A stretch of 64,000 bases of DNA, from the sequence record OZ035795.1. The stretch is one strand, 5' to 3'. Source of the stretch: Krischvirus LF73P4. The stretch's first letter is position 1; the number at the start of each line of letters is the position of its first letter. Below are positions 1-16,248 of this stretch, piece after piece. The position numbers and the translations under genes were made by a program. The notes under the pieces are model-generated. The model searched no databases. It worked only from the letters and a program-made list of their open reading frames with translations, and had not been told where the DNA came from.

Positions 1-168
1 GCGACCACTCAGTTTGTAGAGGAAAACTCTATCGAATATGGTCACTATCAGAAATATATTCCGGTGTCCATTATTGACAAGATCACACAAGAATGTATAG
101 TAAATAGAACGCTCAGGAAGGGAGTGATCGACGAACCGACCAACACTCTCGATATTTAAGGGGTATGT

Positions 169-849
169 ATGATCAGAAACCGTCTTCCTCCAGATCCAGA
201 TATGCGAATTAATGCTAAATCTGTGTATATGTTATATTGCATGATGAAAGCTCACATGAACGGGCGTTATGATTGCGTAAAATACAATTGGAGGATGCGG
301 TTGTCTGATGCCGCATTCAATAAACGCAGAGATAAGTATTATTTCGCAAAATTAGCGGAAAAGTACAATCTAAGAGAATTATACTTCCTATTCCTAAGCA
401 ATCTGGTAGCTAATACCGATGCATGGGTAGGTGAAATCACTGATGTTGACGCATACGGCTTTTATATGGAATACATAGGAAAGATAACCGATGCAGCAAC
501 ACGATTTGACGATGACATTAAAAGTCTGGTATACTTCTCCGAGAAACGCGGGGTTACTCTTAAAGAGCTAATTACATACAATCCCACAACCGAAACAAGC
601 GGTATCTTTAAACTACTGCAAAATCGGATTATATCGTTTGAGTCGTTTATGTTGTTAGATAGCTTTCTAAATATAATCGACGAACACGACAAGGTAGCCA
701 AAGACTTGATTTGGCAAACTTATAGTGTTAAAATGAAGGCGTACAAGAAACTACTTGTTATTGACGCCGCAAAAGCAAGAGCATTATTTGTTAAAGTAGT
801 TAAAGAGTGTAAAGAAATATCTCAATTAAAAGCCGAAACAAATAGTTGA
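169..849 (+). CDS. 59: helicase-loading protein gp59
   Basis: 226 aa; near-collinear with T4 gp59 (KSVYxLY, HMNGxYD, IKYNW, RRDKYxFxKL, LVANxDAW, FKLLQxxIISFExFxLLDSFLNIID); directly upstream of gene 32 as in T4. Confidence 0.85.
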   Translation: MIRNRLPPDPDMRINAKSVYMLYCMMKAHMNGRYDCVKYNWRMRLSDAAFNKRRDKYYFAKLAEKYNLRELYFLFLSNLVANTDAWVGEITDVDAYGFYMEYIGKITDAATRFDDDIKSLVYFSEKRGVTLKELITYNPTTETSGIFKLLQNRIISFESFMLLDSFLNIIDEHDKVAKDLIWQTYSVKMKAYKKLLVIDAAKARALFVKVVKECKEISQLKAETNS

Positions 850-873
850 CAAGTAAATTTAAATCTGTATAAT
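846..873 (+). promoter_or_regulatory. sigma70-like early promoter (TTGACA-16-TATAAT) upstream of gene 32
   Basis: TTGACA at 846-851, TATAAT at 868-873, followed by AAGAAGGA Shine-Dalgarno and start at 910. Confidence 0.6.
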
Positions 874-909
874 AGTCTAGTAAATTAATCAAAAGAAGGA
901 ATAGTGAAT

Positions 910-1878
910 ATGTTTAAACGCCAAGATTCTTCCAAACTGCAAGCTCAACTGGCCTCACTGAAAGGTGGCAACGGTTTCTCCAAAGAAGATCCGAAAGAGT
1001 GGAAGATTAAGACTGATGCAGCAGGTAACGGTGAAGCCCTGATTCGCTTCCTGCCGTCTAAGACAGAAGACGGTCTGCCGATTGTGAAACTGGTAAACCA
1101 TTCCTTCAAAGTTAATGGCAAATGGTATTGGGAAAACTGCTCCAGCACCCACGGTGATTTTGATTCTTGCCCTGTGTGCAAATATATTAACGAAAAAGAC
1201 CTGTACAATACCGATAAAACCGAATGGCAACTGATTAAGCGTAAAGCGTCTTACTACGCAAACATTCTGGTACTGAAAGATCCTCAAGCACCAGAAAATG
1301 AAGGTAAGGTATTCAAATTCCGCTTCGGTCAGAAAATTTATGATAAGATCGTTGCAATGGTGAACGTGAATACCGATATGGGCGAAGTTCCGGTAGATGT
1401 AACTTGTGTGTTCTCCGGTGCTAACTTCCTCCTGAAAGCTAAGAAGGTTGATAAACACCAGAACTATGATGATTCTCGTTTCATGCAGCAATCACAGCTT
1501 CCGAAAATTGAAGACGAAGCATATCAGAAATATCTGATGGAAAACATGGTTGATCTGGGTGAGATTGTAGCGCCTAGCCAGTTTAAACCGTTCGATGAAC
1601 TGGAAACCAAATTTAAGAAAACTATGGGCGTTTCTATGGTAGCTGGTGCTGCGGCTTCCAGTGCTGCGGCAGCGATTAACAGTCAGCTTGACGATTTTGA
1701 CGCACAGATGAATGCATTCGACTCTGGTATTACCGCAGCTAGCACTGTAGTTGGTATTAACGCAGCTAGCACGGCGTTAGATTCTTCCGCTGATGACCTG
1801 ATGGCATCGCTGGATCTGGGTGGCGGTACTTCCTCCGCTTCTGATCTGGATGACCTGGACTCACTTCTGAATCTGTAA
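910..1878 (+). CDS. 32: single-stranded DNA-binding protein gp32
   Basis: ATG at 910 (track ORF opens with GTG at 904); LIRFLPSK, FKxNGKWY, zinc site STHGDxDSCPVC, [25 protein letters not shown], Ser/Asp-rich acidic C-terminal tail; collinear with T4 gp32. Confidence 0.95.
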
Positions 1879-1887
1879 TGAATTTTT

Positions 1888-1914
1888 AAAGCCTTCCTTC
1901 GGGGAGGCTTTTTA
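1888..1914 (+). terminator. rho-independent terminator after gene 32
   Basis: GC stem GCCTTCC/GGGAGGC with TTCG loop followed by T-run. Confidence 0.6.
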
Positions 1915-1940
1915 TTGCCTAAAATTTTATGAAAAAGGTG

Positions 1941-1968
1941 TTGACATGCTGATGTGGTAATGTATAAT
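1941..1968 (+). promoter_or_regulatory. sigma70-like early promoter
   Basis: TTGACA 1941-1946, TATAAT 1963-1968, then conserved leader ACACATCGAAAC...GAGAGGATTATATTATG. Confidence 0.6.
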
Positions 1969-1999
1969 ACACACATCGAAACAAAGAGAGGATTATATT

Positions 2000-2329
2000 A
2001 TGTGGACTGTAGAACAAATCGTAAACGACTCAACCGAAATTATCTCATGCGGCACTATTGAAGAATGTCTTAAAGCCGCTAACCGTGAATGTATTACGGT
2101 TTATGAATCACGTCGCGGTGATGGCAGCTTGATTCAAAGCGATTACCGCTACACCGCAAATAAAATTATCTTCCGTTTCTGGGAAAATGGTGTTAATGTT
2201 GGTGTCAGCCTACTGAAAATGTGGCGTGATTATTCCGAACGCTATTATGTTTCTCCTGATGTTGGTAATGAGTTTAAAACCGAGATCACAGAAGAAAACG
2301 TTAACGAAAACTATCTCAAGCTGGTTTGA
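2000..2329 (+). CDS. hypothetical protein
   Basis: 109 aa ORF, ATG preceded by conserved GAGGATTATATT initiation module and promoter; no recognised motif. Confidence 0.5.
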   Translation: MWTVEQIVNDSTEIISCGTIEECLKAANRECITVYESRRGDGSLIQSDYRYTANKIIFRFWENGVNVGVSLLKMWRDYSERYYVSPDVGNEFKTEITEENVNENYLKLV

Positions 2330-2344
2330 TAGGAGATTTATATT

Positions 2345-2926
2345 ATGATTCAATGTGTATTTGCGATTGGTGACACTAAAATGTCGGATGAAAATTGGGC
2401 TTTTGGTTTTAAAGGCGGTTTACCGTGGGGTCGTCCAATCAAAAAGGACATGGAAAACTTTAAAATGCGCACTATGGGAGATGTTGATCTTGCGGCGGTT
2501 GTAATGGGACGCAATACCTTTGAAAGTCTTCCTAAAGCACTGGAAGGTCGTGTGAATGTGGTTGTTAGTACCGATACCAGTAAGCCAGCACCGAAAGCAA
2601 AAAACGGCGAACAACCTGATGTGTATACCGCGATTACTAATGATGGTGGATTGAAGGAATTATTAGAAGTCATAGAGAAATTGCAAGGTTTGGTAAGCGT
2701 TATCGGCGGACCTTCCCTGATTGAAAAAGCGGTTGACTTTGCGGACCGTATTGTGTTAACGTATGTTCAACGTTCAGGGGTCAACGATCCATTTGAATAT
2801 GATGTTGGTATCTCTAAGGAAATGATTCAGGAATTATATTTTGATTTTGCAACAAAAGAAGAACATAATTACTTCCTTGATGATTACCTGATCAGCGAAC
2901 AAATTTTAGAACGTAAGAAGGCGTAA
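2345..2926 (+). CDS. frd: dihydrofolate reductase
   Basis: 193 aa; DHFR signatures (GxGLPWG, VVMGRNTFESLP, VIGGxxL) and T4 frd position between 32 and td. Confidence 0.9.
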   Translation: MIQCVFAIGDTKMSDENWAFGFKGGLPWGRPIKKDMENFKMRTMGDVDLAAVVMGRNTFESLPKALEGRVNVVVSTDTSKPAPKAKNGEQPDVYTAITNDGGLKELLEVIEKLQGLVSVIGGPSLIEKAVDFADRIVLTYVQRSGVNDPFEYDVGISKEMIQELYFDFATKEEHNYFLDDYLISEQILERKKA

Positions 2927-2927
2927 C

Positions 2928-3020
2928 ATGAAAATTCTGACAGATTATGAGTGCAAACATTGTGGTGAATCTTTGATGTTTGCTGGTAGTCGGTGTTTAC
3001 ATTGTGGACGGGAACAATAA
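2928..3020 (+). CDS. small zinc-ribbon protein (30 aa)
   Basis: CxxC...CxxC in 30 aa; start overlaps frd stop; below the ORF-track size cut-off. Confidence 0.3.
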   Translation: MKILTDYECKHCGESLMFAGSRCLHCGREQ

Positions 3021-3289
3021 TGAAAATAACCATTATTCAATTATGGTCAGCTACCAGTGAAAACTACGCAGTAGCCGTAGATTATTACGGGTTACAATAT
3101 CTCTATGATGAAGCTAAAGCGTCATGGCTTCCAGTACAGGAAAATAGCGACATTTCAAGACCTGTTACTGTATTCGATCCGGGCGTTGTCTTTATCGATA
3201 TTGACGAGACAGTAGCAAAACTGCGTAAGAAAGCAATCAATAAGAAAAAGGTGAAGTGGGATGAAAGAATATTTGAAACTGTTGCGTGA
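3020..3289 (+). CDS. hypothetical protein
   Basis: 89 aa from internal ATG of track ORF 2993-3289; overlaps td start by 29 nt. Confidence 0.35.
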   Translation: MKITIIQLWSATSENYAVAVDYYGLQYLYDEAKASWLPVQENSDISRPVTVFDPGVVFIDIDETVAKLRKKAINKKKVKWDERIFETVA

Positions 3290-4484
3290 TGTTCTTGATA
3301 ATGGTTGGCCTCGTGAAGACCGCACGGGGGTAGGTACGCTCTCTAAATTCGGCGCAGAGATGCGAATTGATTTAAGCAAGGGTTTCCCCTTACTGACCAC
3401 TAAAAAGATGGCTACAGCCTCTGTAATTGGCGAATTGCTATGGTTTATGGAGGGATCACTTGACCGCCGTCGTTTACAGGAAATTACACGCGGTAAGTTT
3501 GACGAAGAAGCCTTCGACATTTGGCGCGGTAACTGTCTTGATATGAAAGAAAAGAATCCTTTGCGATTCAATGGTTATAATGTCGGTAATATGTATGGTA
3601 TGGCATGGCGACGCAAACCGATTCATCCACACGGTGAAATCAAAATTAAGCGCGTTAAGAGCAAATATACACATACATTTAAGCACCCGTGGGTAGAAGA
3701 CTTTACGCCAACTAACGACACAGAAGACCGTTTATGTGCTATCTGGCGTGGTATGCGTTATGAAGAGTTTGATTATATTCTGGTAGCAGACCACTGGAAG
3801 ACTCAATCTAATTTTGTTAATGATGCATATTGCTTGTGGGGATTCCAGGAATGGGTAGATGATGGTTATTTCGGTTATCTGCTTGATAATGAATATCTGG
3901 GCGGTGACATTTTAGCACCGGATACCACGATCTTTGTTAGTATGGACGTAGACACATCAAGCCCTAAAGACGATGAAGAATATGTCTATCGCCAGAAGAT
4001 CTGGGAAGACCAGTTACAAAAAGTTATTGACATGATCAAGAATGATCCATATAGTCGTCGTATTATCATTGATTCATGGAACGTACAGGAAACGCATAAT
4101 GCTGTGTTAGGTGTATGTCATCCGATGGTACAGTTTTATGTTTCCAACGACAACAAATTGAGTTGTTTATTTTTCATGCGTTCGAATGATCTCTTTTTAG
4201 GGAATCCGTTCAACGTAGCGAGCTATGCACTGTTAACGCATATCATCGCGAAGATTTGCGGGTTAGAAGTTGGCGAACTGGTTTATCAGTGTGGGGATTG
4301 CCACATTTACAAAAACCATTTTGATCAAGTTATGGAACAGTTAAGCCGTGTTCCGTTTGATAAACCAACAATTGAGTTGCCGGAATTTAAATCTTTAGAT
4401 GAGGTATTGACAAAGACTCCGAAAGACTTTAAAATTCACAACTATCAAAGCCATCCAGCAATCACCGCTCAAATGGCAGTATAA
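3261..4484 (+). CDS. td: thymidylate synthase with large internal insertion, intron-less
   Basis: 407 aa; TS signatures DRTGVGT, GFPLLTTKK, catalytic-Cys region VLGVCHPMVQFYV, FLGNPFNVASYALLTHIIA, DCHIYKNH; ~120-130 extra residues relative to T4 Td between the WRR and DPYSRRII segments. Confidence 0.9.
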   Translation: MKEYLKLLRDVLDNGWPREDRTGVGTLSKFGAEMRIDLSKGFPLLTTKKMATASVIGELLWFMEGSLDRRRLQEITRGKFDEEAFDIWRGNCLDMKEKNPLRFNGYNVGNMYGMAWRRKPIHPHGEIKIKRVKSKYTHTFKHPWVEDFTPTNDTEDRLCAIWRGMRYEEFDYILVADHWKTQSNFVNDAYCLWGFQEWVDDGYFGYLLDNEYLGGDILAPDTTIFVSMDVDTSSPKDDEEYVYRQKIWEDQLQKVIDMIKNDPYSRRIIIDSWNVQETHNAVLGVCHPMVQFYVSNDNKLSCLFFMRSNDLFLGNPFNVASYALLTHIIAKICGLEVGELVYQCGDCHIYKNHFDQVMEQLSRVPFDKPTIELPEFKSLDEVLTKTPKDFKIHNYQSHPAITAQMAV

Positions 4485-4490
4485 ACAAAT

Positions 4491-4508
4491 GCGGGGAGAA
4501 ATCCCCGC
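4491..4508 (+). repeat. GCGGGGA-GAAA-TCCCCGC hairpin (promoter-less copy of the PeSL stem-loop)
   Basis: same stem-loop as in the promoter repeats at 7093-7109, 7986-8002, 36353-36369; no T-run; lies just upstream of the ribosome-binding site of the 4521 ORF. Confidence 0.6.
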
Positions 4509-4520
4509 TAGGAGTATCAA

Positions 4521-4838
4521 ATGAAAATATGCCGCGTTGTAAACAAGTACAATAGCGATTTTGATGTTAACATTCAGCGTGGTACTATGTGGGGAAATCC
4601 ATACACCGCCAAAGAATACGGACGCGAGAAAGCTATTGCATTATACAAAGAGTGGTTGTATAATAAGATTCGAAATGGTGAGATAACACGAGCGCATTTA
4701 GAAGTATTAAGACATATGCGCTTAGGTTGTACTTGTTACCCTAAGAAATGCCACGGTGAAGTATTGGCGGATCTCGTTAATAGAGTTTTCGGCGATACTC
4801 CAGAAAATACGCTTGATATATTAAGTGAGGTAATATGA
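4521..4838 (+). CDS. DUF4326-like protein
   Basis: 105 aa; MWGNPY ... CxCxPxxCHGEVL pattern as remembered for DUF4326 family proteins. Confidence 0.4.
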   Translation: MKICRVVNKYNSDFDVNIQRGTMWGNPYTAKEYGREKAIALYKEWLYNKIRNGEITRAHLEVLRHMRLGCTCYPKKCHGEVLADLVNRVFGDTPENTLDILSEVI

Positions 4839-7078
4839 TTAAAAATGTTGTTAAGTCTTCCGGTCTGACTGTTCCGTTTGAAAAAGAAAAAGTAATGAAA
4901 ATTCTGGAAGCGGCAGCCGAAGGTCATAACGTTGATCCATATGAATTGTTTGATATGGTTGAACCACTTCTGACAGAAGGTATGTCTACCAATGATATCC
5001 AGAAAGTATTGATTAAGGTCGCCGCAGATAACATCACGGTAGAAACTCCTGATTATCAATATGTAGCAAGTAACCTTGCAATGTTCGCGCTTCGCAAATC
5101 AGTATACGGTCAATTCCAACCGATTGATTTTTACAGCCATATTGAGCGTAATATTGCAACCGGAAAATATGATCGCGAAATTCTGCAAAAATATTCCCGT
5201 GAAGAAGTGGAATATCTGGAGAAATTCATCGACCATAAACTTGATTTTAAAATGACCTATGCTGGTGCGATGCAGTTAAAAGAGAAATATCTTGTTCAAG
5301 ATCGCAGCACCAAGAAAATCATCGAAACACCGCAATTTGCGTATATGCTGATCGGTATGTGCTTGCATCAAGAAGAGACAGAAAATCGACTTGAACATGT
5401 GATTGATTTTTATAATGCGGTTGCGAATAAGCAAATCTCTCTGCCTACTCCGATTATGGCAGGTGTGCGTACCCCAACACGCCAATTTAGTTCGTGTGTG
5501 GTGATTGAAAGTGATGACTCATTGCAGGGTATTAATGAAACCGCAAATGCAATCATCAAGTATATTAGCAAGCGTGCTGGTATCGGTATCAACGCTGGCA
5601 TGATTCGCGCGGAAGGATCTAAGATCGGGCATGGTGAAGTTCGTCATACTGGAGTTATCCCATTCTGGAAACATTTTCAGACTGCCGTTAAGTCATGCTC
5701 ACAAGGCGGTATTCGTGGCGGGGCAGCGACACTCTATTACCCAATGTGGCATTTAGAGTTTGAAAGTCTGATTGTGTTAAAGAACAATAAGGGCGTGGAA
5801 GATAACCGCATTCGTCATCTTGATTACGGCGTACAGATTAATAACCTGATGGTAGAGCGATTCCTTAAACGGGATTACATTACTCTGTTTAGTCCAGATG
5901 TTGCGGGTGGCTTGTTGTGGGATCTGTACTTCCGAGACGAGGAAGGTTTCCGCCAACTTTACGAAAAACTGGAAAAAGATCCGAGTGTTCGTAAAACTCG
6001 TGTTAAAGCCGAAGACCTGTTTTTAGCGGTGGCAATTGAACGTTTTAACACTGGTCGAATCTACCCAACGTTCACAGACAACATGAACAATCACGGGGCG
6101 TTTATTCGTAATGTAGCACCGATTAAACAATCTAACCTGTGTTGTGAAATTGCACTGCCTACTAAACCGATGGGTCGTGATGATTCAGAGATCAGCCTAT
6201 GCACTTTGGCAGCATATGTTTTAGGTAATTTCGATATCGAAAACATGGAAGAAGTAGAACGCATTGCTATGGTTATGGTGCGTGCACTTGACAACCTGTT
6301 AGATTATCAGGATTATCCTGTAGAACAAGCTCTGACAGCAAAAAAACGTCGCTCTCTGGGCGTTGGTGTTACTAACTTTGCATCATATCTCGCGGATAAT
6401 TTCTTCACATATGAAGACGCTAACGAGTTTACGCATAAAACGTTTGAACGCTTGCAATATGCTCTGATTAAGGCTAGTGTGCAACTCGCAAAAGAGAAGG
6501 GTGCTTGCGAACTGATGCACGAAACACGCTACGGTCGCGGTGAACTTCCTATCGACTGGTACAAAAAGACAGTAGATGAACTGGTTGATCCGGTGTATGA
6601 GATGGATTGGGAAGAACTGCGCGAAGACCTGAAAAAATATGGCATTCGTAACAGTACGCTTTCGGCTCTGATGCCTTGTGAGTCGTCTTCTCAGGTATCT
6701 AACAGCACAAACGGTATTGAACCGCCTCGCGGGATTGTATCGGTTAAAGGATCGAAAGAAGGGCAATTTAATCAGGTTATTCCGAACGTAGAGAATAATG
6801 CTGATGTTATTGACCTGCTTTGGACACTGATCAAGAAAGGTAACAAGCCTTATCTGACACTTGCAGCGATCATGCAGAAGTTTGTAGACCAGGCGATTAG
6901 TTCCAACACATCCTACGATCCAAGCACTTATAAGACTGGTAAAGTCGATATTGCTGATGTGTTAGATGATATGTTGTTCGCTCAACATTACGGTCTGAAA
7001 ACCCTGTATTATGCGAACGTTCGCGACGGTGCAGATGGTACGGAAGACGCTAGCGAGTGTTCATCCTGTAAGCTGTAA
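4835..7078 (+). CDS. nrdA: aerobic ribonucleotide reductase large subunit
   Basis: 747 aa; N-terminal ATP-cone, class I RNR active-site region (NLCCEI, PCESSS), C-terminal CxxC tail; T4 order td-nrdA-nrdB. Confidence 0.95.
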   Translation: MIKNVVKSSGLTVPFEKEKVMKILEAAAEGHNVDPYELFDMVEPLLTEGMSTNDIQKVLIKVAADNITVETPDYQYVASNLAMFALRKSVYGQFQPIDFYSHIERNIATGKYDREILQKYSREEVEYLEKFIDHKLDFKMTYAGAMQLKEKYLVQDRSTKKIIETPQFAYMLIGMCLHQEETENRLEHVIDFYNAVANKQISLPTPIMAGVRTPTRQFSSCVVIESDDSLQGINETANAIIKYISKRAGIGINAGMIRAEGSKIGHGEVRHTGVIPFWKHFQTAVKSCSQGGIRGGAATLYYPMWHLEFESLIVLKNNKGVEDNRIRHLDYGVQINNLMVERFLKRDYITLFSPDVAGGLLWDLYFRDEEGFRQLYEKLEKDPSVRKTRVKAEDLFLAVAIERFNTGRIYPTFTDNMNNHGAFIRNVAPIKQSNLCCEIALPTKPMGRDDSEISLCTLAAYVLGNFDIENMEEVERIAMVMVRALDNLLDYQDYPVEQALTAKKRRSLGVGVTNFASYLADNFFTYEDANEFTHKTFERLQYALIKASVQLAKEKGACELMHETRYGRGELPIDWYKKTVDELVDPVYEMDWEELREDLKKYGIRNSTLSALMPCESSSQVSNSTNGIEPPRGIVSVKGSKEGQFNQVIPNVENNADVIDLLWTLIKKGNKPYLTLAAIMQKFVDQAISSNTSYDPSTYKTGKVDIADVLDDMLFAQHYGLKTLYYANVRDGADGTEDASECSSCKL

Positions 7079-7086
7079 AATAACTG

Positions 7087-7115
7087 TTGACGCGGGGAGA
7101 AATCCCCGCTATAAT
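7087..7115 (+). promoter_or_regulatory. PeSL-type promoter copy A (TTGACG-17-TATAAT, hairpin in spacer)
   Basis: TTGACG 7087-7092; spacer CGGGGAGAAATCCCCGC is a perfect hairpin; TATAAT 7110-7115; 32-nt identity with copy at 7977-8008. Confidence 0.7.
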
Positions 7116-7133
7116 GTGAGGTGAATTGTAAGA

Positions 7134-7983
7134 ATGAATTATTACAATGAGTGGGATAAAGGCGCGGCTAACTGGTTACGTGAACTTATAGCAAACAAAT
7201 TAATTCCTTATGGGTATGTCGATGAAAGATCAATTACAGAAGTCACCCCTAGAGATCTGGAAGGATTTACACAATGTCACTTCTTCGCGGGGATTGGGGG
7301 GTGGTCAAGAGCATTGCAACTCGCTGGAGTACCAGAAACAACAAGGCTATGGGCCGGATCGCCACCATGTCAACCATTTTCAAGAGCCGGAAAGCAAAAA
7401 GGAAAGTTCGACGAAAGACACCTTGCACCGACATTTCTTAAACTCGTGTCAGCGTGCAAACCTCCAATGCTCTTTGGGGAACAGGTTGCAAAAGCTATCG
7501 AAACCGGGTGGTTGGATGATCTTCACGAGGAATTGGAAAGAGAAGGTTACAGTGTCGGGGCTGCGGTATTATCATGTGATATCGTCGGTGCGCCGCACAA
7601 GCGGGACAGACTTTTCTTCGGGGCTATTAACGAGTTGGCAAACACCTACTGTAACGAATATATCAGCAAGATCGCCGGGCAATGCAACGGAGAATGGAAG
7701 CGAGACTTGCAACGGGGAGGAAATCACTAGCGCCGGGAAATTTATCAGAACAAGTGAAGATGTATTACGGTTTTGGGACAGTGGAACAGAGTATCTATGC
7801 AGAGACGGGAAAAAACGAATTGTTGAACCCACGATTCCCTTGTTGGCTGATGGGGTATCCTCAACAATGGGACGATTGCGCGGTTATGGCAATGCGATAG
7901 TTCCTCAAGTCGGAGCACTTTTTATAGAAAGTTTTGTAGGTGCTTACATTGATGCTTGCGATGGATTGTCAAATAGCTGTTGA
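7134..7983 (+). pseudogene. disrupted DNA (cytosine-5)-methyltransferase (motifs spread over three frames)
   Basis: frame of 7134: FAGIGGW (motif I), PPCQPFS (IV), FGEQV (VI-like), HKRDRLFFG (VIII), stop at 7730; frame of 7682: NPRFPCWLMGYP (motif IX-like), stop at 7900; frame ending 7983: RLRGYGNAIVPQV (motif X). At least two frame changes are needed for a full-length enzyme. Confidence 0.7.
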
Positions 7984-8008
7984 CGCGGGGAGAAATCCCC
8001 GCTATAAT
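7980..8008 (+). promoter_or_regulatory. PeSL-type promoter copy B (identical to copy A)
   Basis: TTGACG 7980-7985 (overlaps the TGA stop of the methyltransferase frame), hairpin spacer, TATAAT 8003-8008. Confidence 0.7.
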
Positions 8009-8039
8009 ACAACCATCAAAAACAAGTGAGGATTTTATT

Positions 8040-8207
8040 ATGACCAAATTAAAATGTGTTGCTGTAGATTTTGAACTAGCTGATAGCTTTGTTGTTGGTG
8101 ATGAATATGATGCTCGACATGATGGGACTTGCTACTACGTCGAGGATGAATACGGTGTAGAATGGGCGATTCTTCCTGATGATAAATGTTTTGAGGTTGT
8201 CGGATAA
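8040..8207 (+). CDS. hypothetical protein
   Basis: 55 aa from ATG after GTGAGGATTTTATT initiation module; acidic. Confidence 0.4.
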   Translation: MTKLKCVAVDFELADSFVVGDEYDARHDGTCYYVEDEYGVEWAILPDDKCFEVVG

Positions 8208-8380
8208 TGGCTACTGTATGGTTATTGATTGCAATAAGCAATTCAATGTATAATTACGGAAATATGTCAAGCATTGAGTTTGCAACAAAGCAGGATTGCG
8301 TTAAAGCTCGCGAGATTATCCGCGAAGACAATAAACGCTTTATGAATCTATATTGCGTTGAAAAACAAAAGGTGAACTAA
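8207..8380 (+). CDS. small protein, tandem paralogue 1 (MATVWLLIAIS...)
   Basis: 57 aa; hydrophobic N-terminus; start overlaps previous stop (TAATG); similar to the next ORF. Confidence 0.4.
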   Translation: MATVWLLIAISNSMYNYGNMSSIEFATKQDCVKAREIIREDNKRFMNLYCVEKQKVN

Positions 8381-8547
8381 TGGCTACATTATGGTTATTG
8401 CTTTCCGTTAGCGTAGGCGTATATAATAAAGGAACTGTTACCAGCGTAGAGTTTTCATCATATCAAAATTGTTTTGAAGCTGTGCAGGAATTGCAGCAGG
8501 ATAGCGAAATAAACAGAAATACTAAGTTCTTTTGTGTTAAAAAGTGA
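8380..8547 (+). CDS. small protein, tandem paralogue 2 (MATLWLLLSVS...)
   Basis: 55 aa; same architecture as 8207-8380; start overlaps previous stop. Confidence 0.4.
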   Translation: MATLWLLLSVSVGVYNKGTVTSVEFSSYQNCFEAVQELQQDSEINRNTKFFCVKK

Positions 8548-8562
8548 TAGTGAGGTGAATTA

Positions 8563-9726
8563 ATGAGCGTATTTAACCGCGAACATGTTGATATTATGAA
8601 CGAACCGATGTTTCTGGGTAGTGGGTTGGGTATCGCTCGCTATGATATTCAGCGTCATCAAGTATTTGAAGAATTAATTGAAAAATCTCTGTCATTTTTC
8701 TGGCGTCCAGAAGAGATTTCACTTGCAACCGACCGCATTCAATATCTTAATATGGGTGACGTTGAAAAGCGTTTCTTTACCGAAAACTTGAAGTATCAGA
8801 CATTACTTGATTCTATTCAAGGTCGCGCACCGTCCGCAGCATTTGGTCCAATTGTATCTGATCCAACTCTCGATACATGGTTGCAAACATGGACATTCAG
8901 CGAAACGATTCATAGCAGAAGCTATACACACATTATGCGTAACTGTTTCATTGATCCGGCTAGTGAGTTCGACCAGATCATCGATAACCCTGCTATCATG
9001 AAGCGAGCGGAATCTATCGGGAAATATTATGATGATGTTCTGGTGAAAATCCGTGAATACGAGGACGCTAAAGAAAGTTTTAGTCGTTCTTCTGAAAATG
9101 AATTTGACCTTGATGCATATTCTGATAGCATTTCGTACGTGGAAGAAACTAAACGCAATCTGATGGAATCACTCTATCTGTGTATGCATTGCGTTAATGC
9201 ACTGGAGGCAATCCGTTTTTATGTGTCCTTTGCATGTACTTTCAGCTTTGCCGAACGTGGTTTACTGGAAGGTAACGCGAAGATCATGAAATTTATTGCG
9301 CGTGATGAACAACTTCACTTAAAAGGCACACAATACATTATTCGTCAATGGCAAACGGGGGTTGATGGTGATGAGTGGAAACAGATTGCGGAAGAACTTG
9401 AAGGCGAAGCAACGAAAATCTTTCTGGATGTTGTCGAGCAAGAAAAAGAATGGGTAGACCACCTATTCGCAATGGGGTCAATTCCTGGCTTGTCACCGGA
9501 AATTCTGAAAACTTATGTAGAATACCTGGCAGATTCCCGTATGCGTGCTGTCGGACTGAAAAGCCCGTTTAGTGTTCGTCGTCATCCTTTACCGTGGATG
9601 CGTAAGTGGTTAAACTCTGACGAAGTACAGAATGCAGCGCAAGAAGTAGAGATTATGTATCTGGTATCTCAGGTTAATACCGATTTAACAGACGATGACT
9701 ACAACCGATTCGGGAAATATCTATGA
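8563..9726 (+). CDS. nrdB: aerobic ribonucleotide reductase small subunit, intron-less
   Basis: 387 aa; collinear with T4 NrdB (MNEPMFxGSGLGxARYDIQRH, FFWRPEE, SETIHSRSYTHI, FIARDEQLHLKGTQYII). Confidence 0.95.
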   Translation: MSVFNREHVDIMNEPMFLGSGLGIARYDIQRHQVFEELIEKSLSFFWRPEEISLATDRIQYLNMGDVEKRFFTENLKYQTLLDSIQGRAPSAAFGPIVSDPTLDTWLQTWTFSETIHSRSYTHIMRNCFIDPASEFDQIIDNPAIMKRAESIGKYYDDVLVKIREYEDAKESFSRSSENEFDLDAYSDSISYVEETKRNLMESLYLCMHCVNALEAIRFYVSFACTFSFAERGLLEGNAKIMKFIARDEQLHLKGTQYIIRQWQTGVDGDEWKQIAEELEGEATKIFLDVVEQEKEWVDHLFAMGSIPGLSPEILKTYVEYLADSRMRAVGLKSPFSVRRHPLPWMRKWLNSDEVQNAAQEVEIMYLVSQVNTDLTDDDYNRFGKYL

Positions 9727-10199
9727 TATATTTTGTCGATTTAGATTTTACGATCACAGATCCAACGCATCGACTAGCAAAGATGCCAACCGAAAATCTT
9801 GATAAAGTCGAGTCATGGATCGAATATAACAAAGCATGTGGGGGAGATTCCCCCATTTACGATGTAATTCGTGTTATTAATGCTCTTTCCGACAACGGGC
9901 ATTTGATTTACATCCTCACAGGACGAAGTTCACATGCTTACATGGAAACAATTGATTGGTTAATTTCTAACGGGGTGTGTTTTGATAAAATCTTTATGAG
10001 AGGCCGTACCGATTCCCGTAAAGACTATCACATCAAATTAGAGGTAATTAAATCCTTTGATAAAGATGAAGTTGTCGGAGTCTTTGAGGATAACCCAGAA
10101 GTGATTAAAGTTTTGCGTGAAAATGGTTATCGTGTCTTTGACGTAGGAAATCACAAAGATAAGACGCGAGCGGATATTGCAAATCACGGTCATGATTAA
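9723..10199 (+). CDS. HAD-superfamily phosphatase-like protein
   Basis: 158 aa; N-terminal FVDLDFTITD (DxDxT nucleophile motif), later Asp-rich motif; start overlaps nrdB stop. Confidence 0.5.
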   Translation: MIYFVDLDFTITDPTHRLAKMPTENLDKVESWIEYNKACGGDSPIYDVIRVINALSDNGHLIYILTGRSSHAYMETIDWLISNGVCFDKIFMRGRTDSRKDYHIKLEVIKSFDKDEVVGVFEDNPEVIKVLRENGYRVFDVGNHKDKTRADIANHGHD

Positions 10200-10211
10200 T
10201 GTTTGTTCAAA

Positions 10212-10236
10212 GTCGCCCATAGTGGCGACTTTTTTG
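10212..10236 (+). terminator. rho-independent terminator
   Basis: GTCGCC/GGCGAC stem followed by TTTTTT. Confidence 0.6.
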
Positions 10237-10246
10237 TTATTGGGTG

Positions 10247-10275
10247 TTGACAATCTGATCTTGCCATAGCATAAT
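10247..10275 (+). promoter_or_regulatory. sigma70-like early promoter
   Basis: TTGACA 10247-10252, 17-nt spacer, CATAAT; leader CACATCGAAACGGAGGAACATATG. Confidence 0.55.
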
Positions 10276-10299
10276 ACGCACATCGAAACGGAGGAACAT

Positions 10300-10518
10300 A
10301 TGGAAACAGAAGAACAAGTCATTGCATATTTTCATCGTAAAAAGATGAAACTTAGAATCGAAAAGCAGTACATCAATCACTACATTGACCGAGTTCACTT
10401 AACAAGTACACCTTACCTATTCCGGTTGATAAACCCTAGAAAACGGTGGGAGAAGTTGGATAGAAACACAAAAATAATTGATAAGCTCACCCAATGGTGG
10501 AATGAATACAACAAGTAA
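10300..10518 (+). CDS. hypothetical protein
   Basis: 72 aa basic ORF behind promoter and GGAGG ribosome-binding site. Confidence 0.5.
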   Translation: METEEQVIAYFHRKKMKLRIEKQYINHYIDRVHLTSTPYLFRLINPRKRWEKLDRNTKIIDKLTQWWNEYNK

Positions 10519-10525
10519 AAAGTAG

Positions 10526-10554
10526 TTGACACTGAATAACGGGGGTAGTAAGAT
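10526..10554 (+). promoter_or_regulatory. PeSL-type promoter (hairpin GGGGGTAGTAAGATACTCCC spanning -10)
   Basis: TTGACA 10526-10531, 17-nt spacer, TAAGAT -10 inside the palindrome; leader CATCGAAACGAAAC + AAGGAGAATCAAAATG. Confidence 0.65.
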
Positions 10555-10587
10555 ACTCCCATCGAAACGAAACAAAGGAGAATCAAA

Positions 10588-10806
10588 ATGAAATTTACTT
10601 GCACCGACTCTATCAGCAAACACTTTGTAGTAGGCGAAGTATACGAATCTACTACCATTCGCCAGCGTGACCTGATGGGTCGCCTTTACAATCAGCCAGT
10701 ATTCATTATTGGCGAAGAATTGTTCTACATTGAAAACCGTCCGTGGGTTGCTTTCAATAAACGAGGACGCAAGGTAGCAAAATTCGAACTTGTCATTAAA
10801 AAGTAG
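10588..10806 (+). CDS. hypothetical protein
   Basis: 72 aa ORF behind PeSL promoter and AAGGAG ribosome-binding site. Confidence 0.5.
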   Translation: MKFTCTDSISKHFVVGEVYESTTIRQRDLMGRLYNQPVFIIGEELFYIENRPWVAFNKRGRKVAKFELVIKK

Positions 10807-10835
10807 TTGACAGCATGAAACGGGGGTAGTAATAT
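10807..10835 (+). promoter_or_regulatory. PeSL-type promoter
   Basis: TTGACA 10807-10812, palindrome GGGGGTAGTAATATACCCCC across -10, conserved leader. Confidence 0.65.
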
Positions 10836-10873
10836 ACCCCCATCGAAACGAAATACACTTTAAGGAGAATCAA

Positions 10874-11023
10874 ATGAACAACTTTGACGCGGTACTGAAA
10901 ATGGCAATCGAAACTTACGCGGAGATCTCCGGCGAGAAAGTAGAGGACATTATCAAAGAATGTCAGAACTTTGAAAGCCAGACAGCCAAGAATGTTCAAA
11001 TGTTGATGTTTGCGGTTGCATAA
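10874..11023 (+). CDS. hypothetical small protein (49 aa)
   Basis: ATG behind AAGGAGAATCAA module; below track size cut-off. Confidence 0.4.
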   Translation: MNNFDAVLKMAIETYAEISGEKVEDIIKECQNFESQTAKNVQMLMFAVA

Positions 11024-11031
11024 AAAAGCAG

Positions 11032-11060
11032 TTGACAGCATATCACGGGAGTAGTAAGAT
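11032..11060 (+). promoter_or_regulatory. PeSL-type promoter
   Basis: TTGACA 11032-11037, palindrome GGGAGTAGTAAGATACTCCC, TAAGAT -10. Confidence 0.65.
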
Positions 11061-11093
11061 ACTCCCATACCAAAACAACTAAGGAGTATCAAG

Positions 11094-11492
11094 ATGATTA
11101 AATTTCAAACTCGCAAAGATGTTCTGGACTTCGTTAAAGTTTTCGGTTACGCTGCATTGCAACATGCAATGGACAAAATGGCCATCTCCCCAGATCAGAC
11201 TATGCTGATCCGTATGGTTAAAGCAACCGCCTACAAAAACGACATTACCCTCTCAGAAATCAACGACGGTAATACTGTTCGCGAGGTAATTGTTTCTTTC
11301 GAATCACCGAAAATTGGCGGTTTTCATACCACGATGTTAGGTGAAATCACTGTCACTGTATACGGGCAAGGTGGCGGAGTGTTTACCGTCAAAGAAGCAA
11401 TGGAAAATGGAACGCTGAACAAAGAAAAACTGGAATTTGTCCTGAAAATCATCAAGGAGCGTAACGAAGCTCGCGATATTCTGGAAAGTTAA
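11094..11492 (+). CDS. hypothetical protein
   Basis: 132 aa ORF behind PeSL promoter and AAGGAG ribosome-binding site. Confidence 0.55.
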   Translation: MIKFQTRKDVLDFVKVFGYAALQHAMDKMAISPDQTMLIRMVKATAYKNDITLSEINDGNTVREVIVSFESPKIGGFHTTMLGEITVTVYGQGGGVFTVKEAMENGTLNKEKLEFVLKIIKERNEARDILES

Positions 11493-11498
11493 TAAGGT

Positions 11499-11522
11499 GG
11501 GCGGGAGAAATCCCGCCTTTGT
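11499..11522 (+). terminator. hairpin GGCGGGA-GAAA-TCCCGCC + T-run
   Basis: same GAGAAATC loop family as the PeSL hairpins, followed by TTT. Confidence 0.45.
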
Positions 11523-11542
11523 TGTGACGTGAGGAAAGGATA

Positions 11543-12004
11543 ATGATTAATGAGCTAATAGAAAACTATGGATTCGTTAAATATTCATGTTTAGAGTGTA
11601 AAGATGGTGATGTGATTCTGCCGCCTCAGAAGAACCGTTTAAATGTTCTTTACGCTATTGTTGTTGATGATGAACTGGTATACATTGGTCAGACTGTCAA
11701 TCTCAGAAAGCGGATCAATTATTACCGGACTAGCATTAACAGACAAACACCAACAGCGGATACTCGCAAGAGTAAGAATATTCATAAGGCGCTAGAGGAA
11801 GGTAAGACAGTAACATTCTATTACCGCCAGTGTTTTGAGTTGTACATCGAGAATCCAACGGGTAAGGATATTATAAGCACTGCCGATATCGAAGAACCTG
11901 TTTTGATCACCAAATTTAAACCAGAATGGAACACAAATTATGTCAACAAAAGAAAACAACAAAAAAGTTTTAGCATTGTTCAAAAATCTGATGGCACTAT
12001 GTGA
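11543..12004 (+). CDS. GIY-YIG nuclease-domain protein
   Basis: 153 aa; LYAIVVDDELVYIGQT...RKRINYY matches the GIY-(x10)-YIG + conserved Arg core; 3' end overlaps rnlA start by 65 nt. Confidence 0.6.
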   Translation: MINELIENYGFVKYSCLECKDGDVILPPQKNRLNVLYAIVVDDELVYIGQTVNLRKRINYYRTSINRQTPTADTRKSKNIHKALEEGKTVTFYYRQCFELYIENPTGKDIISTADIEEPVLITKFKPEWNTNYVNKRKQQKSFSIVQKSDGTM

Positions 12005-13109
12005 CGGATCTGATACGTTCTATTACAAAGATGAAATTACGGCGATGCAAACTCGTATGCGCATTTTTAGCTATCTGTACTTGAGCAAACCGGAAATGTG
12101 GAATAAACCAGATGCGTTAGAGTGTCGCGGGATCATGTTTGAAATTGACGATAAAGGTCGTCCGGTCCGCATTGCATCTCGTCCTATGGAGAAGTTTTTT
12201 AATTTAGGCGAGAATGATCGCGCTCGCTTTAAGCCGGAAGATGTGGAAATGGTCATGGACAAAATGGACGGTAGTCTAGTAAGCACATACATTGATAACG
12301 GCTATGTTCAGTTGAAGTCTAAAGCGGCCTTGTACTCAAGCCAGGCAGAGAGAGCAAACGGTCTTCTGTATTCAGAGAAGTATGCGGATCTACGCGCTAA
12401 GATTGCTGATATTGGGTCTGATTATACTTTCAACTTTGAATATACAGCGCCCAGCAACCGAATTGTTGTAGAATATTCTGAACCGTCGCTAACACTTCTG
12501 AATGTACGCCATAACGTCACAGGAGAGTACGTACCGCATCAAATGCTATTTGTTGACGCAATCCTACGTCCTCATCTGGTAAATGCGTTACAGGTTGATT
12601 CAGCGCGTTTTGGCAATATTCTTGACGAAGTTCGGACCGCAGAAGGTATCGAAGGAATTGTTGCACGCACTAAAGACGGTCAAATGTTCAAAGTGAAGAG
12701 TGAATGGTATATTGGTGTGCATAACATTAAAAACACATCGATGTTTCCTAATAACCTGATCTACTATGTCGTAGAAAGCGAAACCGATGATTTGCGTGCT
12801 GCATATGAAGGCGAACCGGAAGCACTGGAACGAATCGAGCTATTCGAGGAAGCATTCAGGTCTATTCTTCGCAATGCCTTCACGACAGCAACAGAATTTT
12901 ATAGCGCACACGCGGGAGAAGACAGAAAGACATATGCATCAAATGCGACTATCGAATCACGTAAACATGGTGATGCACAAGCATATATTTTCATGTGTCT
13001 GATGATTGCATTTGATGGTCTTGATTATGACCGTATTCTGGATTCAATGAAAACTTACTATCTACGGAATTATAAGAAACTTATTCCGGCTGATAAGATT
13101 GATTGGTAA
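11940..13109 (+). CDS. rnlA: RNA ligase 1
   Basis: 389 aa; collinear with T4 gp63 (FKNLMALC, RIFSYxY, PDALECRGIMFE, VRIASRPMEKFFNL, DGSLVSTY). Confidence 0.9.
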   Translation: MSTKENNKKVLALFKNLMALCDGSDTFYYKDEITAMQTRMRIFSYLYLSKPEMWNKPDALECRGIMFEIDDKGRPVRIASRPMEKFFNLGENDRARFKPEDVEMVMDKMDGSLVSTYIDNGYVQLKSKAALYSSQAERANGLLYSEKYADLRAKIADIGSDYTFNFEYTAPSNRIVVEYSEPSLTLLNVRHNVTGEYVPHQMLFVDAILRPHLVNALQVDSARFGNILDEVRTAEGIEGIVARTKDGQMFKVKSEWYIGVHNIKNTSMFPNNLIYYVVESETDDLRAAYEGEPEALERIELFEEAFRSILRNAFTTATEFYSAHAGEDRKTYASNATIESRKHGDAQAYIFMCLMIAFDGLDYDRILDSMKTYYLRNYKKLIPADKIDW

Positions 13110-13115
13110 TAATAA

Positions 13116-13138
13116 GCGGGGCTAGTTCCCCGCCTTTT
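13116..13138 (+). terminator. rho-independent terminator after rnlA
   Basis: GCGGGG/CCCCGC stem + TTTT. Confidence 0.6.
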
Positions 13139-13154
13139 GTCGTTGGGGGGTAAT

Positions 13155-13478
13155 ATGTCAAAGCTGATATACATTGTTATCATATCTGTATTGCTGGGGG
13201 TAGGTGGCAATATGTGGTGGGAAAATAAAAAGGAGGTAGATCGACTGAATCAGGAATTTACAGAATATAAGAAAAAGACAGATGAGAAGATGAAGATTGT
13301 AGACTCGCTGCAAAAGGAGATGTACGGAATAAGAACTAAGTTTGCAGAAGAACAAAACAAAGCAATGAAAGACGCTACACGAGGCGATGTAGTAGCACAA
13401 AAACCCAAGTTGGTAGAGAAACAGCTTAATGACTCATTTAAGGAGTTTACCGAAGAATTAAGGGAGGCTACTAAATGA
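13155..13478 (+). CDS. putative i-spanin-like protein (N-terminal TM + coiled coil)
   Basis: 107 aa; single N-terminal TM helix then charged helical region; adjacent to pseT, where T4 carries its spanin genes (pseT.3/pseT.2). Confidence 0.45.
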   Translation: MSKLIYIVIISVLLGVGGNMWWENKKEVDRLNQEFTEYKKKTDEKMKIVDSLQKEMYGIRTKFAEEQNKAMKDATRGDVVAQKPKLVEKQLNDSFKEFTEELREATK

Positions 13479-13927
13479 GCATAGAAATATTTCCTACACA
13501 AGAGCAGATAAGCAATTTTAATCTGGTTGATTATCTGTGGATAGGTGCAAGCATTATTATCCTGATGGTGTTTTCAATTTTCGTGATACACTGGATGTTT
13601 AAGAAAGCACATAAGAATTTTCAGACCGCCATAATCCATGTCTTCGCTGTGCCTATTGTATTTGCGCTTTCTTCGTGTACAATGGACCATTATTCACAGG
13701 AACCGAAATTACATCCTCCACTACCAGCACCAATAGAAAAAGTTGACATTGACCTGAAAGTTGATACAATAGACGGTAAACCTAGAGTTTCTATGTCGTG
13801 GGAGGACTCCCAAAAATTCAGAGTCTGGCTTGCGGATATTAAGAGATATACACTTGAAAGTAAGTTGATCATGTGTTATTATCGAAAAGAACTTAATGAG
13901 GAACGGTGCAAACCGAAGGAGAAATAA
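13475..13927 (+). CDS. putative o-spanin-like lipoprotein / membrane protein
   Basis: AGGGAGG ribosome-binding site, ATG overlapping upstream stop; hydrophobic segment ending in lipobox-like ALSSC, Pro-rich region; product may start at internal Met (13595). Confidence 0.4.
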   Translation: MSIEIFPTQEQISNFNLVDYLWIGASIIILMVFSIFVIHWMFKKAHKNFQTAIIHVFAVPIVFALSSCTMDHYSQEPKLHPPLPAPIEKVDIDLKVDTIDGKPRVSMSWEDSQKFRVWLADIKRYTLESKLIMCYYRKELNEERCKPKEK

Positions 13928-14805
13928 TGCCGAAATGTGAAGTGATTTTAACCGTTGGTTGTTCTGGGTCTGGTAAAACTACATGGGCGATGGAAACATG
14001 TAAACGGTTTAGTAATTATCGTAATGTGAATCGTGATGATCTTCGTCTTATGTTGTTTGGTGTTGACTCACATTTGAAATACAAGTATACTAAGGAAAAA
14101 GAAAAACTGGTGGAGTCTATTCAGAGAATGATTGCTCGTGAGACTCTATCACGCGGATTGAGTATCATTATCTCTGATACCAACCTGAAAGAAAAACATC
14201 GTGTATTCTACAAAGAACTTGCAAAAGAATTTAACGCGGTGTATACTGAACAAGTGTTCAATGAATCATTTGAGACACTAAAGAAACGTAATTTCTATCG
14301 CGGCGAGAAAGCAATTCCACTTTCTCATTTGCGCAACCAATTTTATCTGATGCAGGAATATATGGGTCAAGAAGTATACAAACCGAATACCATGCTGCCA
14401 AAGGCAGTGATCTTTGATATTGATGGAACATTAGCGGATAAGGGCGGTCGTCATCCGTTTGACTGGACAAAGGTCAAAGAAGATAAACCGCGTCCGCAAG
14501 TGATCGAAATGCTTAAACTGTATCGTGATAATGGCTATCGTATCATTACATGCTCAGGGCGTGAGGATGTTTGCGAAGAAGATACTCTGCAATGGCTGCG
14601 TGAACAAGGTATTGAACCTAGTGATCACTTTCAACGTGAAACTAATGATCGTCGTCCTGATCATGAAGTGAAGAAAGAGATTTTCTTCTCTGAAATTGCA
14701 CCGCGTTATCATGTTGTTTTGGCGGTAGATGACCGTGATCAAGTGGTTGACATGTACCGCTCAATTGGTGTAGAATGTTTTCAGGTTAACTACGGAGAAT
14801 TTTAA
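13927..14805 (+). CDS. pseT: polynucleotide 5'-kinase / 3'-phosphatase
   Basis: ATG 13927 after AAGGAG; P-loop GCSGSGKTTWA, phosphatase DxDGT (IFDIDGTLA), collinear with T4 PseT to the C-terminal GVECxQV. Confidence 0.9.
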   Translation: MPKCEVILTVGCSGSGKTTWAMETCKRFSNYRNVNRDDLRLMLFGVDSHLKYKYTKEKEKLVESIQRMIARETLSRGLSIIISDTNLKEKHRVFYKELAKEFNAVYTEQVFNESFETLKKRNFYRGEKAIPLSHLRNQFYLMQEYMGQEVYKPNTMLPKAVIFDIDGTLADKGGRHPFDWTKVKEDKPRPQVIEMLKLYRDNGYRIITCSGREDVCEEDTLQWLREQGIEPSDHFQRETNDRRPDHEVKKEIFFSEIAPRYHVVLAVDDRDQVVDMYRSIGVECFQVNYGEF

Positions 14806-15008
14806 TGTTTACCGATAAACTCAAGCAATTAGGCGAAGCACTTGCTAAACGTGGTTTTAGTGTTGATATTGAACCAGCGCCAGTTATGCCGTTTAGCGAT
14901 GAACGTCGCAGTGTATATGTCATCATGAGAAATAATCATGGTGTGAATACATTCAATGTAAAACAGTATAGCGACGGATCAGTAGAATACTTTCGCGTAT
15001 ACGGTTAA
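14805..15008 (+). CDS. hypothetical protein
   Basis: 67 aa; start overlaps pseT stop. Confidence 0.4.
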   Translation: MFTDKLKQLGEALAKRGFSVDIEPAPVMPFSDERRSVYVIMRNNHGVNTFNVKQYSDGSVEYFRVYG

Positions 15009-15029
15009 TTACTATGTGAGGATTATATT

Positions 15030-15843: not shown

Positions 15844-15884
15844 TTCATCATTAAACTGTATTGATTTGAAGAGGTAATAAAATT

Positions 15885-16208: not shown

Positions 16209-16219
16209 TGATTTTAAAC

Positions 16220-16248
16220 GGCGGGAAATAATCCCGCCTATATTTTGG
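16220..16248 (+). terminator. rho-independent terminator after gene 31
   Basis: GGCGGGA/TCCCGCC stem + T-rich tail. Confidence 0.55.

Follow-up and report, generated by a model that had tools for sequence, protein, structure and literature searches.

Two described systems come closest to the locus reported here. In the phages RB49 and phi1, the elements known as PeSLs are promoter/terminator cassettes which flank variable genes and recombine, deleting or inserting those genes, with the appearance of mini-circles (PMC2839356, PMC4122927). M.EcoHK31I, in turn, is a heterodimeric C5-methyltransferase whose beta subunit, the carrier of motif IX, is encoded inside the alpha gene in another reading frame (PMC2836561). 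Here we describe a cytosine methylase gene bounded by two PeSLs downstream of nrdA in Krischvirus LF73P4, in a 64,000-nucleotide (nt) stretch of sequence record OZ035795.1 (hereafter the window, to which coordinates refer unless stated otherwise). By its matches to phage records the window is a Krischvirus genome, i.e., that of an RB49-like T4-type coliphage. We consider it likely that the locus as a whole is a PeSL cassette carrying an orphan C5-methyltransferase which is natively written in two overlapping frames and has been knocked out here by a deletion of 2 base pairs (bp). The PeSL-bounded cassette and the pseudogene are ordinary and belong to a known mechanism. The point of interest is the family-wide two-frame architecture, on which a literature search covering Mte8 and overlapping or alternative-frame phage cytosine methyltransferases found no paper, though a few database records annotate both open reading frames (ORFs).

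The two overlapping ORFs are referred to below as alpha and beta. As deposited, the gene is spread over three frames. The sequence-only reading of this DNA had described a Dcm-type C5-methyltransferase with its motifs scattered in this way, and on both counts we agree. The product of the 7134 frame contains FAGIGG, PPCQPFS, GEQV and HKRDR (motifs I, IV, VI and VIII) and matches PF00145 at 69.4 bits (cut-off 22), a match which covers motifs IV-VIII only (profile positions 64-166). The 7682 frame contains LNPRFPCWLMGYPQQW at 7823-7870, the LMGYP motif, and a Pfam search of this frame gave no match. GNAIVP (motif X) is read at 7888-7905 in the frame ending at 7983, a different frame from that of motifs I-VIII. 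The methylase falls within the C5-methyltransferase fold. The parts of the gene, and the lesion that separates them, are as follows.

7134-7730, plus strand: alpha ORF, truncated, with 182 native residues followed by 16 out-of-frame residues and a stop.
7284-7301, 7362-7382 and 7596-7610, plus strand: alpha motifs I, IV and VIII, respectively, from PF00145 and the alignment to KMB43 and Delraymugoa.
7679-7983, plus strand: C-terminal part of alpha, with a low-complexity linker, CRDGKKRIVEP and motif X GNAIVP (7888-7905).
7222-7678, plus strand: N-terminal part of beta, in the +1 frame relative to alpha, from ATG 7222 (MKDQL...).
7677-7680, plus strand: deletion site, with AA missing between 7678 and 7679 (GCCGG^GCAATG against GCCGGAAGCAATG in all intact relatives).
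7679-7900, plus strand: C-terminal part of beta in the 7682 frame, with the rest of the target-recognition region, motif IX LNPRFPCWLMGYPQQWDDC at 7823-7870 and the stop TAG at 7898-7900.

KMB43 and Delraymugoa, relatives that are 98-99% identical, carry annotated, intact methyltransferases of 283 and 279 amino acids, and nine intact protein variants of 279 or 283 amino acids occur in public assemblies. In the DNA alignment the window differs from the intact relatives by one 2-bp gap and two substitutions. When the two bases are restored, the translation is a 283-amino-acid protein equal to the KMB43 enzyme except for T74A (codon 7353-7355), at a residue that is invariant in 36 diverse family members. 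The deletion hits both ORFs, alpha at codon 183 and beta at about codon 153 when its codons are numbered from ATG 7222. It yields three pieces, i.e., an N-terminal alpha fragment, a chimera of the beta N-terminus with the alpha C-terminus, and an orphan beta C-terminus that is now severed from the beta start. The chimera is the 257-amino-acid ORF 7210-7983, possible only with the deletion. Its beta part holds the conserved SL..RL...G..(I/Y)....WK.K.T..G and the first W-x-T-P-T module (7636-7650). The motifs are thus seen in three frames because a 2-bp deletion acts on a natively two-frame gene.

The sequence-only reading was right that the gene is disrupted in this genome, with alpha truncated at residue 182 and beta split, but its two explanations for the scattered motifs are not supported. 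Instead of decay over three frames there is a single 2-bp lesion, and instead of a gene in need of two recoding events there is the +1-frame beta ORF, found in all intact family members, to which the LMGYP frame belongs. Because alpha is truncated after motif VIII, beta is severed and T74A affects an invariant residue, the methylase is very probably inactive in this genome; its loss is recent. By way of speculation, methylation-dependent restriction (McrBC/McrA) in laboratory or natural hosts may have favoured the loss. Rescue by complementation between fragments was considered and is unlikely, there being no start codon in the alpha C-terminal frame over 7679-7840 and no evident Shine-Dalgarno (SD) sequence before ATG 7682. 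An exact look-up of the 198-amino-acid truncated alpha product gave no match. Disrupted copies of the two-frame gene occur elsewhere too, as in IMGVR_UViG_3300045988_013548, where the alpha frame is closed after 82 codons.

The architecture was followed in 40 family members, namely KMB43, Cronobacter phage Csp-D17 and 38 IMG/VR loci. Motif IX, in the form LNP....WLMG[YF]P..W(D)DC, lies in the +1 frame just before motif X in 18 of 18 members and then in 40 of 40. In divergent members the beta motif changes conservatively (FHPIMARQIMGFPPEW, LNPEFSCWLMGYPPAW), whereas the alpha reading of the same bases diverges; further examples of the beta-frame sequence are ...LNPAHSR and WLMGYPPEWDDC. Beta is open for 220-421 codons in every member (40/40). 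The open stretch begins around alpha codon 19-36, with the beta start near alpha codon 30, and closes shortly after entering the GNAIVP codons; in many members an in-frame stop stands right before the beta ATG. Its product consists, in order from the N-terminus, of a poorly conserved segment, the conserved stretch SL..RL...GS..Y.LTWK.K.TP.G...L.AS..RT, W-[PAL]-T-P..D modules, whose number (one to six) underlies the length variation within the family, and motif IX. Alpha runs from motifs I, IV, VI and VIII through a low-complexity linker to CRDGK.R..EP...GNAIVPQ. The beta sequence LNP....WLMG[YF]P..W is invariant and by eye fits the canonical R.LTP.E..RLQGFP..W, with no profile hit and low AlphaFold2 (AF2) confidence at that place.

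The codon positions follow this division. When the 40 genes are aligned in the alpha frame, variability is highest at position 3 over residues 1-165 and again from 247 on, and over residues 232-251 at position 1, the wobble position of beta. Aligned in the beta frame, they vary most at beta position 3 in the W-x-T-P region and motif IX (beta residues 143-185 and 207-226), and upstream of the W-x-T-P region the alpha wobble dominates variability. Stops are depleted in both directions when compared with synonymous-codon shuffles: over alpha residues 36-160 the beta frame has none in 40 of 40 genes against 2.6 expected per gene, and over the beta target-recognition region the alpha frame has none in 40 of 40 against 1.5-11 expected. 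These sequence comparisons show that both frames are kept open and that selection switches between them along the gene. An early view of the LMGYP frame as a chance reading (relatives one indel apart, Pfam empty) was overturned by family-wide conservation and by the codon-position and stop-depletion tests.

Structure prediction and existing annotation were also consulted. AF2 gives alpha a per-residue confidence (pLDDT) below 50 over residues 169-254, i.e., the linker is predicted to be disordered. A beta homologue is modelled as disordered over residues 1-81, with confidence over 82-131 (a helix and a hairpin) and with low confidence at motif IX. Ahead of motif I, alpha residues 1-56 (7134-7300) hold a family-wide YYNEWDK.../VDERSI segment resembling motifs II/III (compare YSNEWDKYA and GDITQV in HhaI), and the AF2 strand order of alpha is consistent with a permuted N-terminal Rossmann half. 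The similarity to HhaI amounts to 10 residues, and a profile of alpha residues 1-46 found chance matches only among PDB sequences, i.e., no statistical support for a permuted motif II/III. Both ORFs are annotated in K1ind1 (as a 'C-specific methylase' with a nested 'Mte8-like protein') and in fTaEco03, and PHROGs places them in separate families, phrog_363 for alpha and phrog_1008 for beta; Pfam has no family for beta. Gene callers have produced at least 7976 alpha-type proteins and only 36 of the beta type, none of the latter with PF00145. Annotation of the family is inconsistent: the records of Xanthomonas phage FoX4 and an epsilon15-like Salmonella phage give the beta frame in place of alpha, and others give alpha and omit beta. 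This very large family has members in Kagunavirus, Seunavirus, Vequintavirus, epsilon15-like, P2-like, Xanthomonas, Rhodobacter and Krischvirus phages, and the two-frame architecture was also found in the epsilon15-like, P2-like and Xanthomonas phages.

Open-frame conservation and the beta start codon suggest that alpha and beta would be made as separate chains which, like those of M.EcoHK31I, join to form the active enzyme. Alpha would then be the large catalytic domain, and beta the small domain with the W-P-T-P..D modules (likely for target recognition) and motif IX. Whether the family is an obligate two-chain enzyme, with a same-strand overlap of ~0.7-1.2 kb that would be among the longest in phages and a +1 beta built of modular W-P-T-P repeats and motif IX, we judge to be evenly balanced. 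If it is, a stretch of ~50 codons encodes folded parts of both proteins at once, most database entries for the family cover only one half of the enzyme, and its sequence specificity may depend on how many modules beta has.

Three other explanations bear on this interpretation. It is decidedly unlikely that the 2-bp deletion arose as an error of sequencing or assembly and that the actual phage has an intact gene. Such an error would sit well with the intact gene in relatives 98-99% identical and with a join at 19229-19310 that is absent from all 58 related records and hints at a fault in the assembly. However, a separate Logan assembly, of run ERR12949693, carries both the deletion and T74A, its 921-bp contig ERR12949693_12 being the same as window 7086-8006 base for base, and the 257-amino-acid ORF is recorded in an NCBI contig as well as in that assembly. 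The change from GGAAGC to GGGC does not involve a long homopolymer, it is accompanied by T74A, a unique change of an invariant residue, and it is the only out-of-frame indel within a coding sequence over the ~14.5 kb aligned to KMB43. Since an independent assembly carries it and no other such indel occurs over that distance, the deletion is very probably real. The other two explanations concern the two frames themselves. It is unlikely that the enzyme is one polypeptide made through two programmed ribosomal frameshifts, from alpha to +1 beta after motif VIII and back to alpha before motif X, with the window copy a variant needing other recoding. Selection does run alpha, beta, alpha along the gene, splicing the frames restores the canonical order of motif VIII, target-recognition region, motif IX and motif X with normal spacing, and a T-rich CTT TTC TTC G lies near the first junction. 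Frameshifting nevertheless leaves unexplained why, in 40 of 40 members, the beta frame lacks stops for ~125 codons upstream of the supposed shift and the alpha frame for the 56-242 codons of the target-recognition region, with both frames open hundreds of codons past the putative junctions. Alpha FWVA(D) and beta GWPTP share nucleotides, and a single chain cannot hold both; beta has its own ATG right after an in-frame stop; no conserved slippery site was seen by inspection at the second (IX/X) junction; and the extra frame change in the window is a plain deletion relative to intact relatives.

We regard it as highly improbable that the +1 motif IX is a remnant without function, or results from strong conservation of the nucleotides, with alpha alone as the whole enzyme and the window copy a frameshifted single-chain gene. 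The alpha frame is open throughout and complete, ending in an L-A-x-G-[IV]-P...GNAIVP C-terminus of its own, and both the imbalance in called proteins and the absence of a Pfam family for beta would agree with this. The conservative changes of the beta motif in divergent members do not, nor does the variability of the beta wobble position, which is greatest over motif IX; beta also stays open while added W-P-T-P modules make the target-recognition part anything from 56 to 242 codons long, and the alpha linker is predicted to be disordered. The interpretation we prefer, a natively two-frame methylase with a 2-bp knockout, has points against it as well. That beta would be translated as a separate chain is suggested by open-frame conservation and a start codon. 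SD-like sequences 5' of the beta ATG were assessed only by eye, and that of the window cassette is weak. The first ~80 beta residues are under the constraint of alpha and look disordered, which sits awkwardly with a beta start so far upstream. Family members are kin, and 40 of 40 are not 40 independent trials, although their target-recognition regions still vary in length and content. The Logan contig may come from the deposited genome's own reads, with formal room for a systematic read error, and the non-colinear join at 19.2 kb casts some doubt on the deposited assembly. Selection for loss through McrBC is conjecture.

The cassette is delimited by the following elements, listed with its downstream gene and with two further copies of the stem-loop in the window.

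7074-7115, plus strand: left PeSL, with the nrdA stop, the AT-rich TGTAAAATAA, the -35 box TTGACG (7087-7092), a stem-loop (7092-7109) and the -10 box TATAAT (7110-7115).
7967-8008, plus strand: right PeSL, with the same -35 box, stem-loop and -10 box as the left PeSL.
8040-8207, plus strand: homologue of RB49 ORF233c, the first gene past the cassette, which in cassette-less genomes stands directly 3' of the lone PeSL.
36334-36375, plus strand: third PeSL with the same stem-loop type, 3' of the gene 47 homologue (core at 36347-36368).
4491-4510, plus strand: hairpin GCGGGGAGAAATCCCCGC, a fourth copy without a -35 box, between td and an inserted DUF4326 ORF.

Two exact copies of the 32-nt CTGTTGACGCGGGGAGAAATCCCCGCTATAAT lie at 7084-7115 and 7977-8008, just as the sequence-only reading had reported, with 0 mismatches and 0 expected in shuffles. 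The likeness extends to 42 nt at 95% identity (7074-7115 against 7967-8008). At 7087-7115 and 7980-8008 the copies form a sigma70-type promoter, TTGACG-17 nt-TATAAT, which agrees with the consensus at 11 of 12 positions. Between the boxes lies the stem-loop GCGGGGA-GAAA-TCCCCGC, with a 7-bp G+C stem (centroid energy -15.1 kcal/mol, z -2.9). TGTAAAATAA stands 5' of both copies, with GAGG...ATG at 7134 and GTGAGG...ATG at 8040, and the last two codons and stop of alpha fall inside the right PeSL, which is identical to the lone PeSL of RB49 at the empty site. Thus both flanking elements agree with the sequence definition of PeSLs. The left PeSL may serve as an early promoter for the methylase cassette and as a terminator or attenuator of read-through from nrdA, and the right one as the promoter for the downstream ORF233c homologue. 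A 22-nt core, TTGACGCGGGGAGAAATCCCCG, has a further copy at 36347-36368, where the -10 box is TATACT. This copy, which had been offered as support for shuffling, shows that a PeSL family exists and is no direct evidence for the locus beside nrdA.

Small differences were observed between these elements among relatives. The left PeSL of KMB43 has a 3-bp insertion in the -10 region, TATAATAAT (1700-1720 of the KMB43 stretch compared). The right PeSL stem carries single substitutions in Delraymugoa and in Logan contig ERR9805595_100, and the two copies in the window are identical over 32 nt. In Delraymugoa, alpha ends at a TAA within TGTAAAATAA (2560-2580 of the Delraymugoa stretch compared), the same stop and AT-rich box as after nrdA. 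The window (7964-7983) and KMB43 have TGTCAAATAG instead, and alpha is 4 codons longer, stopping at a TGA inside the -35 box of the right PeSL. Loose sigma70-type matches (TTGACN-16..18-TANANT) number 36 in the window, all on the plus strand and 0 on the minus strand, and five of the 36 have a GGG...CCC hairpin between the boxes (7087, 7980, 19239, 28935 and 36347). Other PeSL sub-families are also present in the window, e.g., at 10516, 10797, 11022, 23128 and 24048.

The insert comprises 893 bp (7116-8008; leader, methylase gene and one PeSL) and stands between nrdA and the ORF233c homologue. The sequence-only reading had put it at ~850 bp, between nrdA and nrdB. Three of the 82 phage records that match 6900-8200 have it (KMB43, Delraymugoa and Aragogtheria), whereas RB49, Phi1, JSE and the remaining matching records have nrdA, one PeSL and ORF233c with the insert absent. 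No Krischvirus copy of the cassette was found in IMG/VR. The comparison of related phages 3' of nrdA that the sequence-only reading had suggested thus finds the site empty in most and an intact gene in few, and its view of a repeat-bounded C5-methyltransferase cassette moved by recombination gains from this absence and from the fit to the PeSL mechanism of RB49/phi1 (PMC2839356). The topology of the locus matches the PeSL model, from which we infer recombination itself. The cassette would have entered, and could possibly leave, by homologous recombination between PeSLs (the mini-circle route), and early transcription of the methylase would start from the left PeSL. Divergence of the cassette and of its flanks, measured against KMB43, gave no clear sign of recent transfer.

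The sequence-only reading had also held a C5-methyltransferase to be unexpected in a T4-type phage owing to hydroxymethylcytosine, and this does not apply to the Krischvirus lineage. RB49 DNA contains ordinary cytosine, and the phage is without hydroxymethylase and glucosyltransferase (PMC4041780); Krischvirus genomes are without homologues of 5-hydroxymethyl-dCMP (5hmdCMP) synthase and glycosyltransferase (2026 study, PMC13390438). Where T4 has gene 42 and beta-gt, the window runs straight from gene 43 into uvsX and gene 41, and among ten ORFs scanned only Td matched PF00303. Because the hydroxymethylcytosine pathway is lacking, a methylase as anti-restriction cargo is unsurprising in Krischviruses, which corrects the idea of a C5 methylase as a misfit there. 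SAP and TB34, two Krischviruses that are 99.96% identical, are reported to differ in their cytosines, fully modified as against canonical, with no known pathway genes (PMC13390438). Both have an empty site between nrdA and ORF233c, and the methylase cassette therefore does not explain the difference between them.

Some features of the window lie apart from the cassette. At the join at 19229-19310 (flanks 1-19310 and 19229-64000) the window is colinear with none of 58 related genomes. To the left is the 32/frd/td/nrdA...ligase region and to the right the dam/nrdC/49/nrdD...43 region, which is ~76-78 kb away in other genomes. The join falls inside a PeSL plus leader of ~78 bp that is identical at both loci, and it reflects either misassembly through this repeat or a genuine rearrangement mediated by PeSLs. 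With a source record of 163,088 bp, nothing need be missing. Thymidylate synthase (3261-4484) has 407 amino acids and matches the whole 266-position Pfam profile from end to end, which places the ~140 extra residues in one or more internal insertions; the KMB43 Td is similarly long (1233-nt coding sequence). The DUF4326 ORF between td and nrdA (105 amino acids, 4521-4838; region 4491-4838) stands behind the GCGGGGAGAAATCCCCGC hairpin. Between td and nrdA, KMB43 lacks an ORF and its hairpin is another one, in what looks like a further small indel at a stem-loop element.

The locus is a clean natural case of a T4-type phage gaining a foreign, functionally recognisable gene via PeSLs, followed by recent inactivation. 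Its cassette belongs to the same phage group as the described PeSL cassettes of RB49/phi1 (PMC2839356, PMC4122927) and resembles them in several respects, i.e., a stop in an AT-rich stretch, sigma70 -35 and -10 boxes with a GGGG...CCCC stem-loop between them, then an SD sequence and ATG, and a gene between two PeSLs in some genomes with a lone PeSL in close relatives. The main text of PMC2839356 says nothing of the nrdA-nrdB site (the word 'nrdA' does not occur). Unlike the ORFans of the described cassettes, the cargo is a recognisable DNA methyltransferase, and the PeSLs of the window are recognised by their sequence. The nearest relatives of the cargo are in unrelated phages, at 68% (Seunavirus) and 60% (Kagunavirus) amino-acid identity. 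With the orphan Dcm-type C5-methyltransferases of phages (PF00145, PHROG 363) it shares catalytic motifs, fold, the lack of a cognate endonuclease nearby and an early-gene context, the last of which suggests an anti-restriction role. It differs from the typical orphan enzyme in a Pfam match limited to motifs IV-VIII, in the motif II/III-like YNEWDK...VDERSI that precedes motif I, and in a target-recognition part and motif IX that are out of frame.

Standard gene callers hide the family-wide dual-coding, which the scatter of motifs exposed. If alpha and beta form a split enzyme, then annotation, REBASE-style prediction of specificity and expression from the 'annotated ORF' alone are incomplete, and the locus would be a good model of two structured proteins sharing coding sequence. 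As in M.EcoHK31I, alpha has motifs I-VIII together with X, and a putative motif IX is on a second ORF nested in another frame. The likeness is one of motif layout, two-chain assembly being experimental for EcoHK31I and deduced for the window family. The M.EcoHK31I beta subunit is about 60 amino acids long. There the alpha subunit also holds the target-recognition region and the smaller beta gives motif IX (PMC2836561), whereas the beta of the window family, at 220-421 codons, overlaps nearly all of alpha and carries apparent target-recognition modules together with motif IX, over which part alpha is a linker predicted to be disordered.

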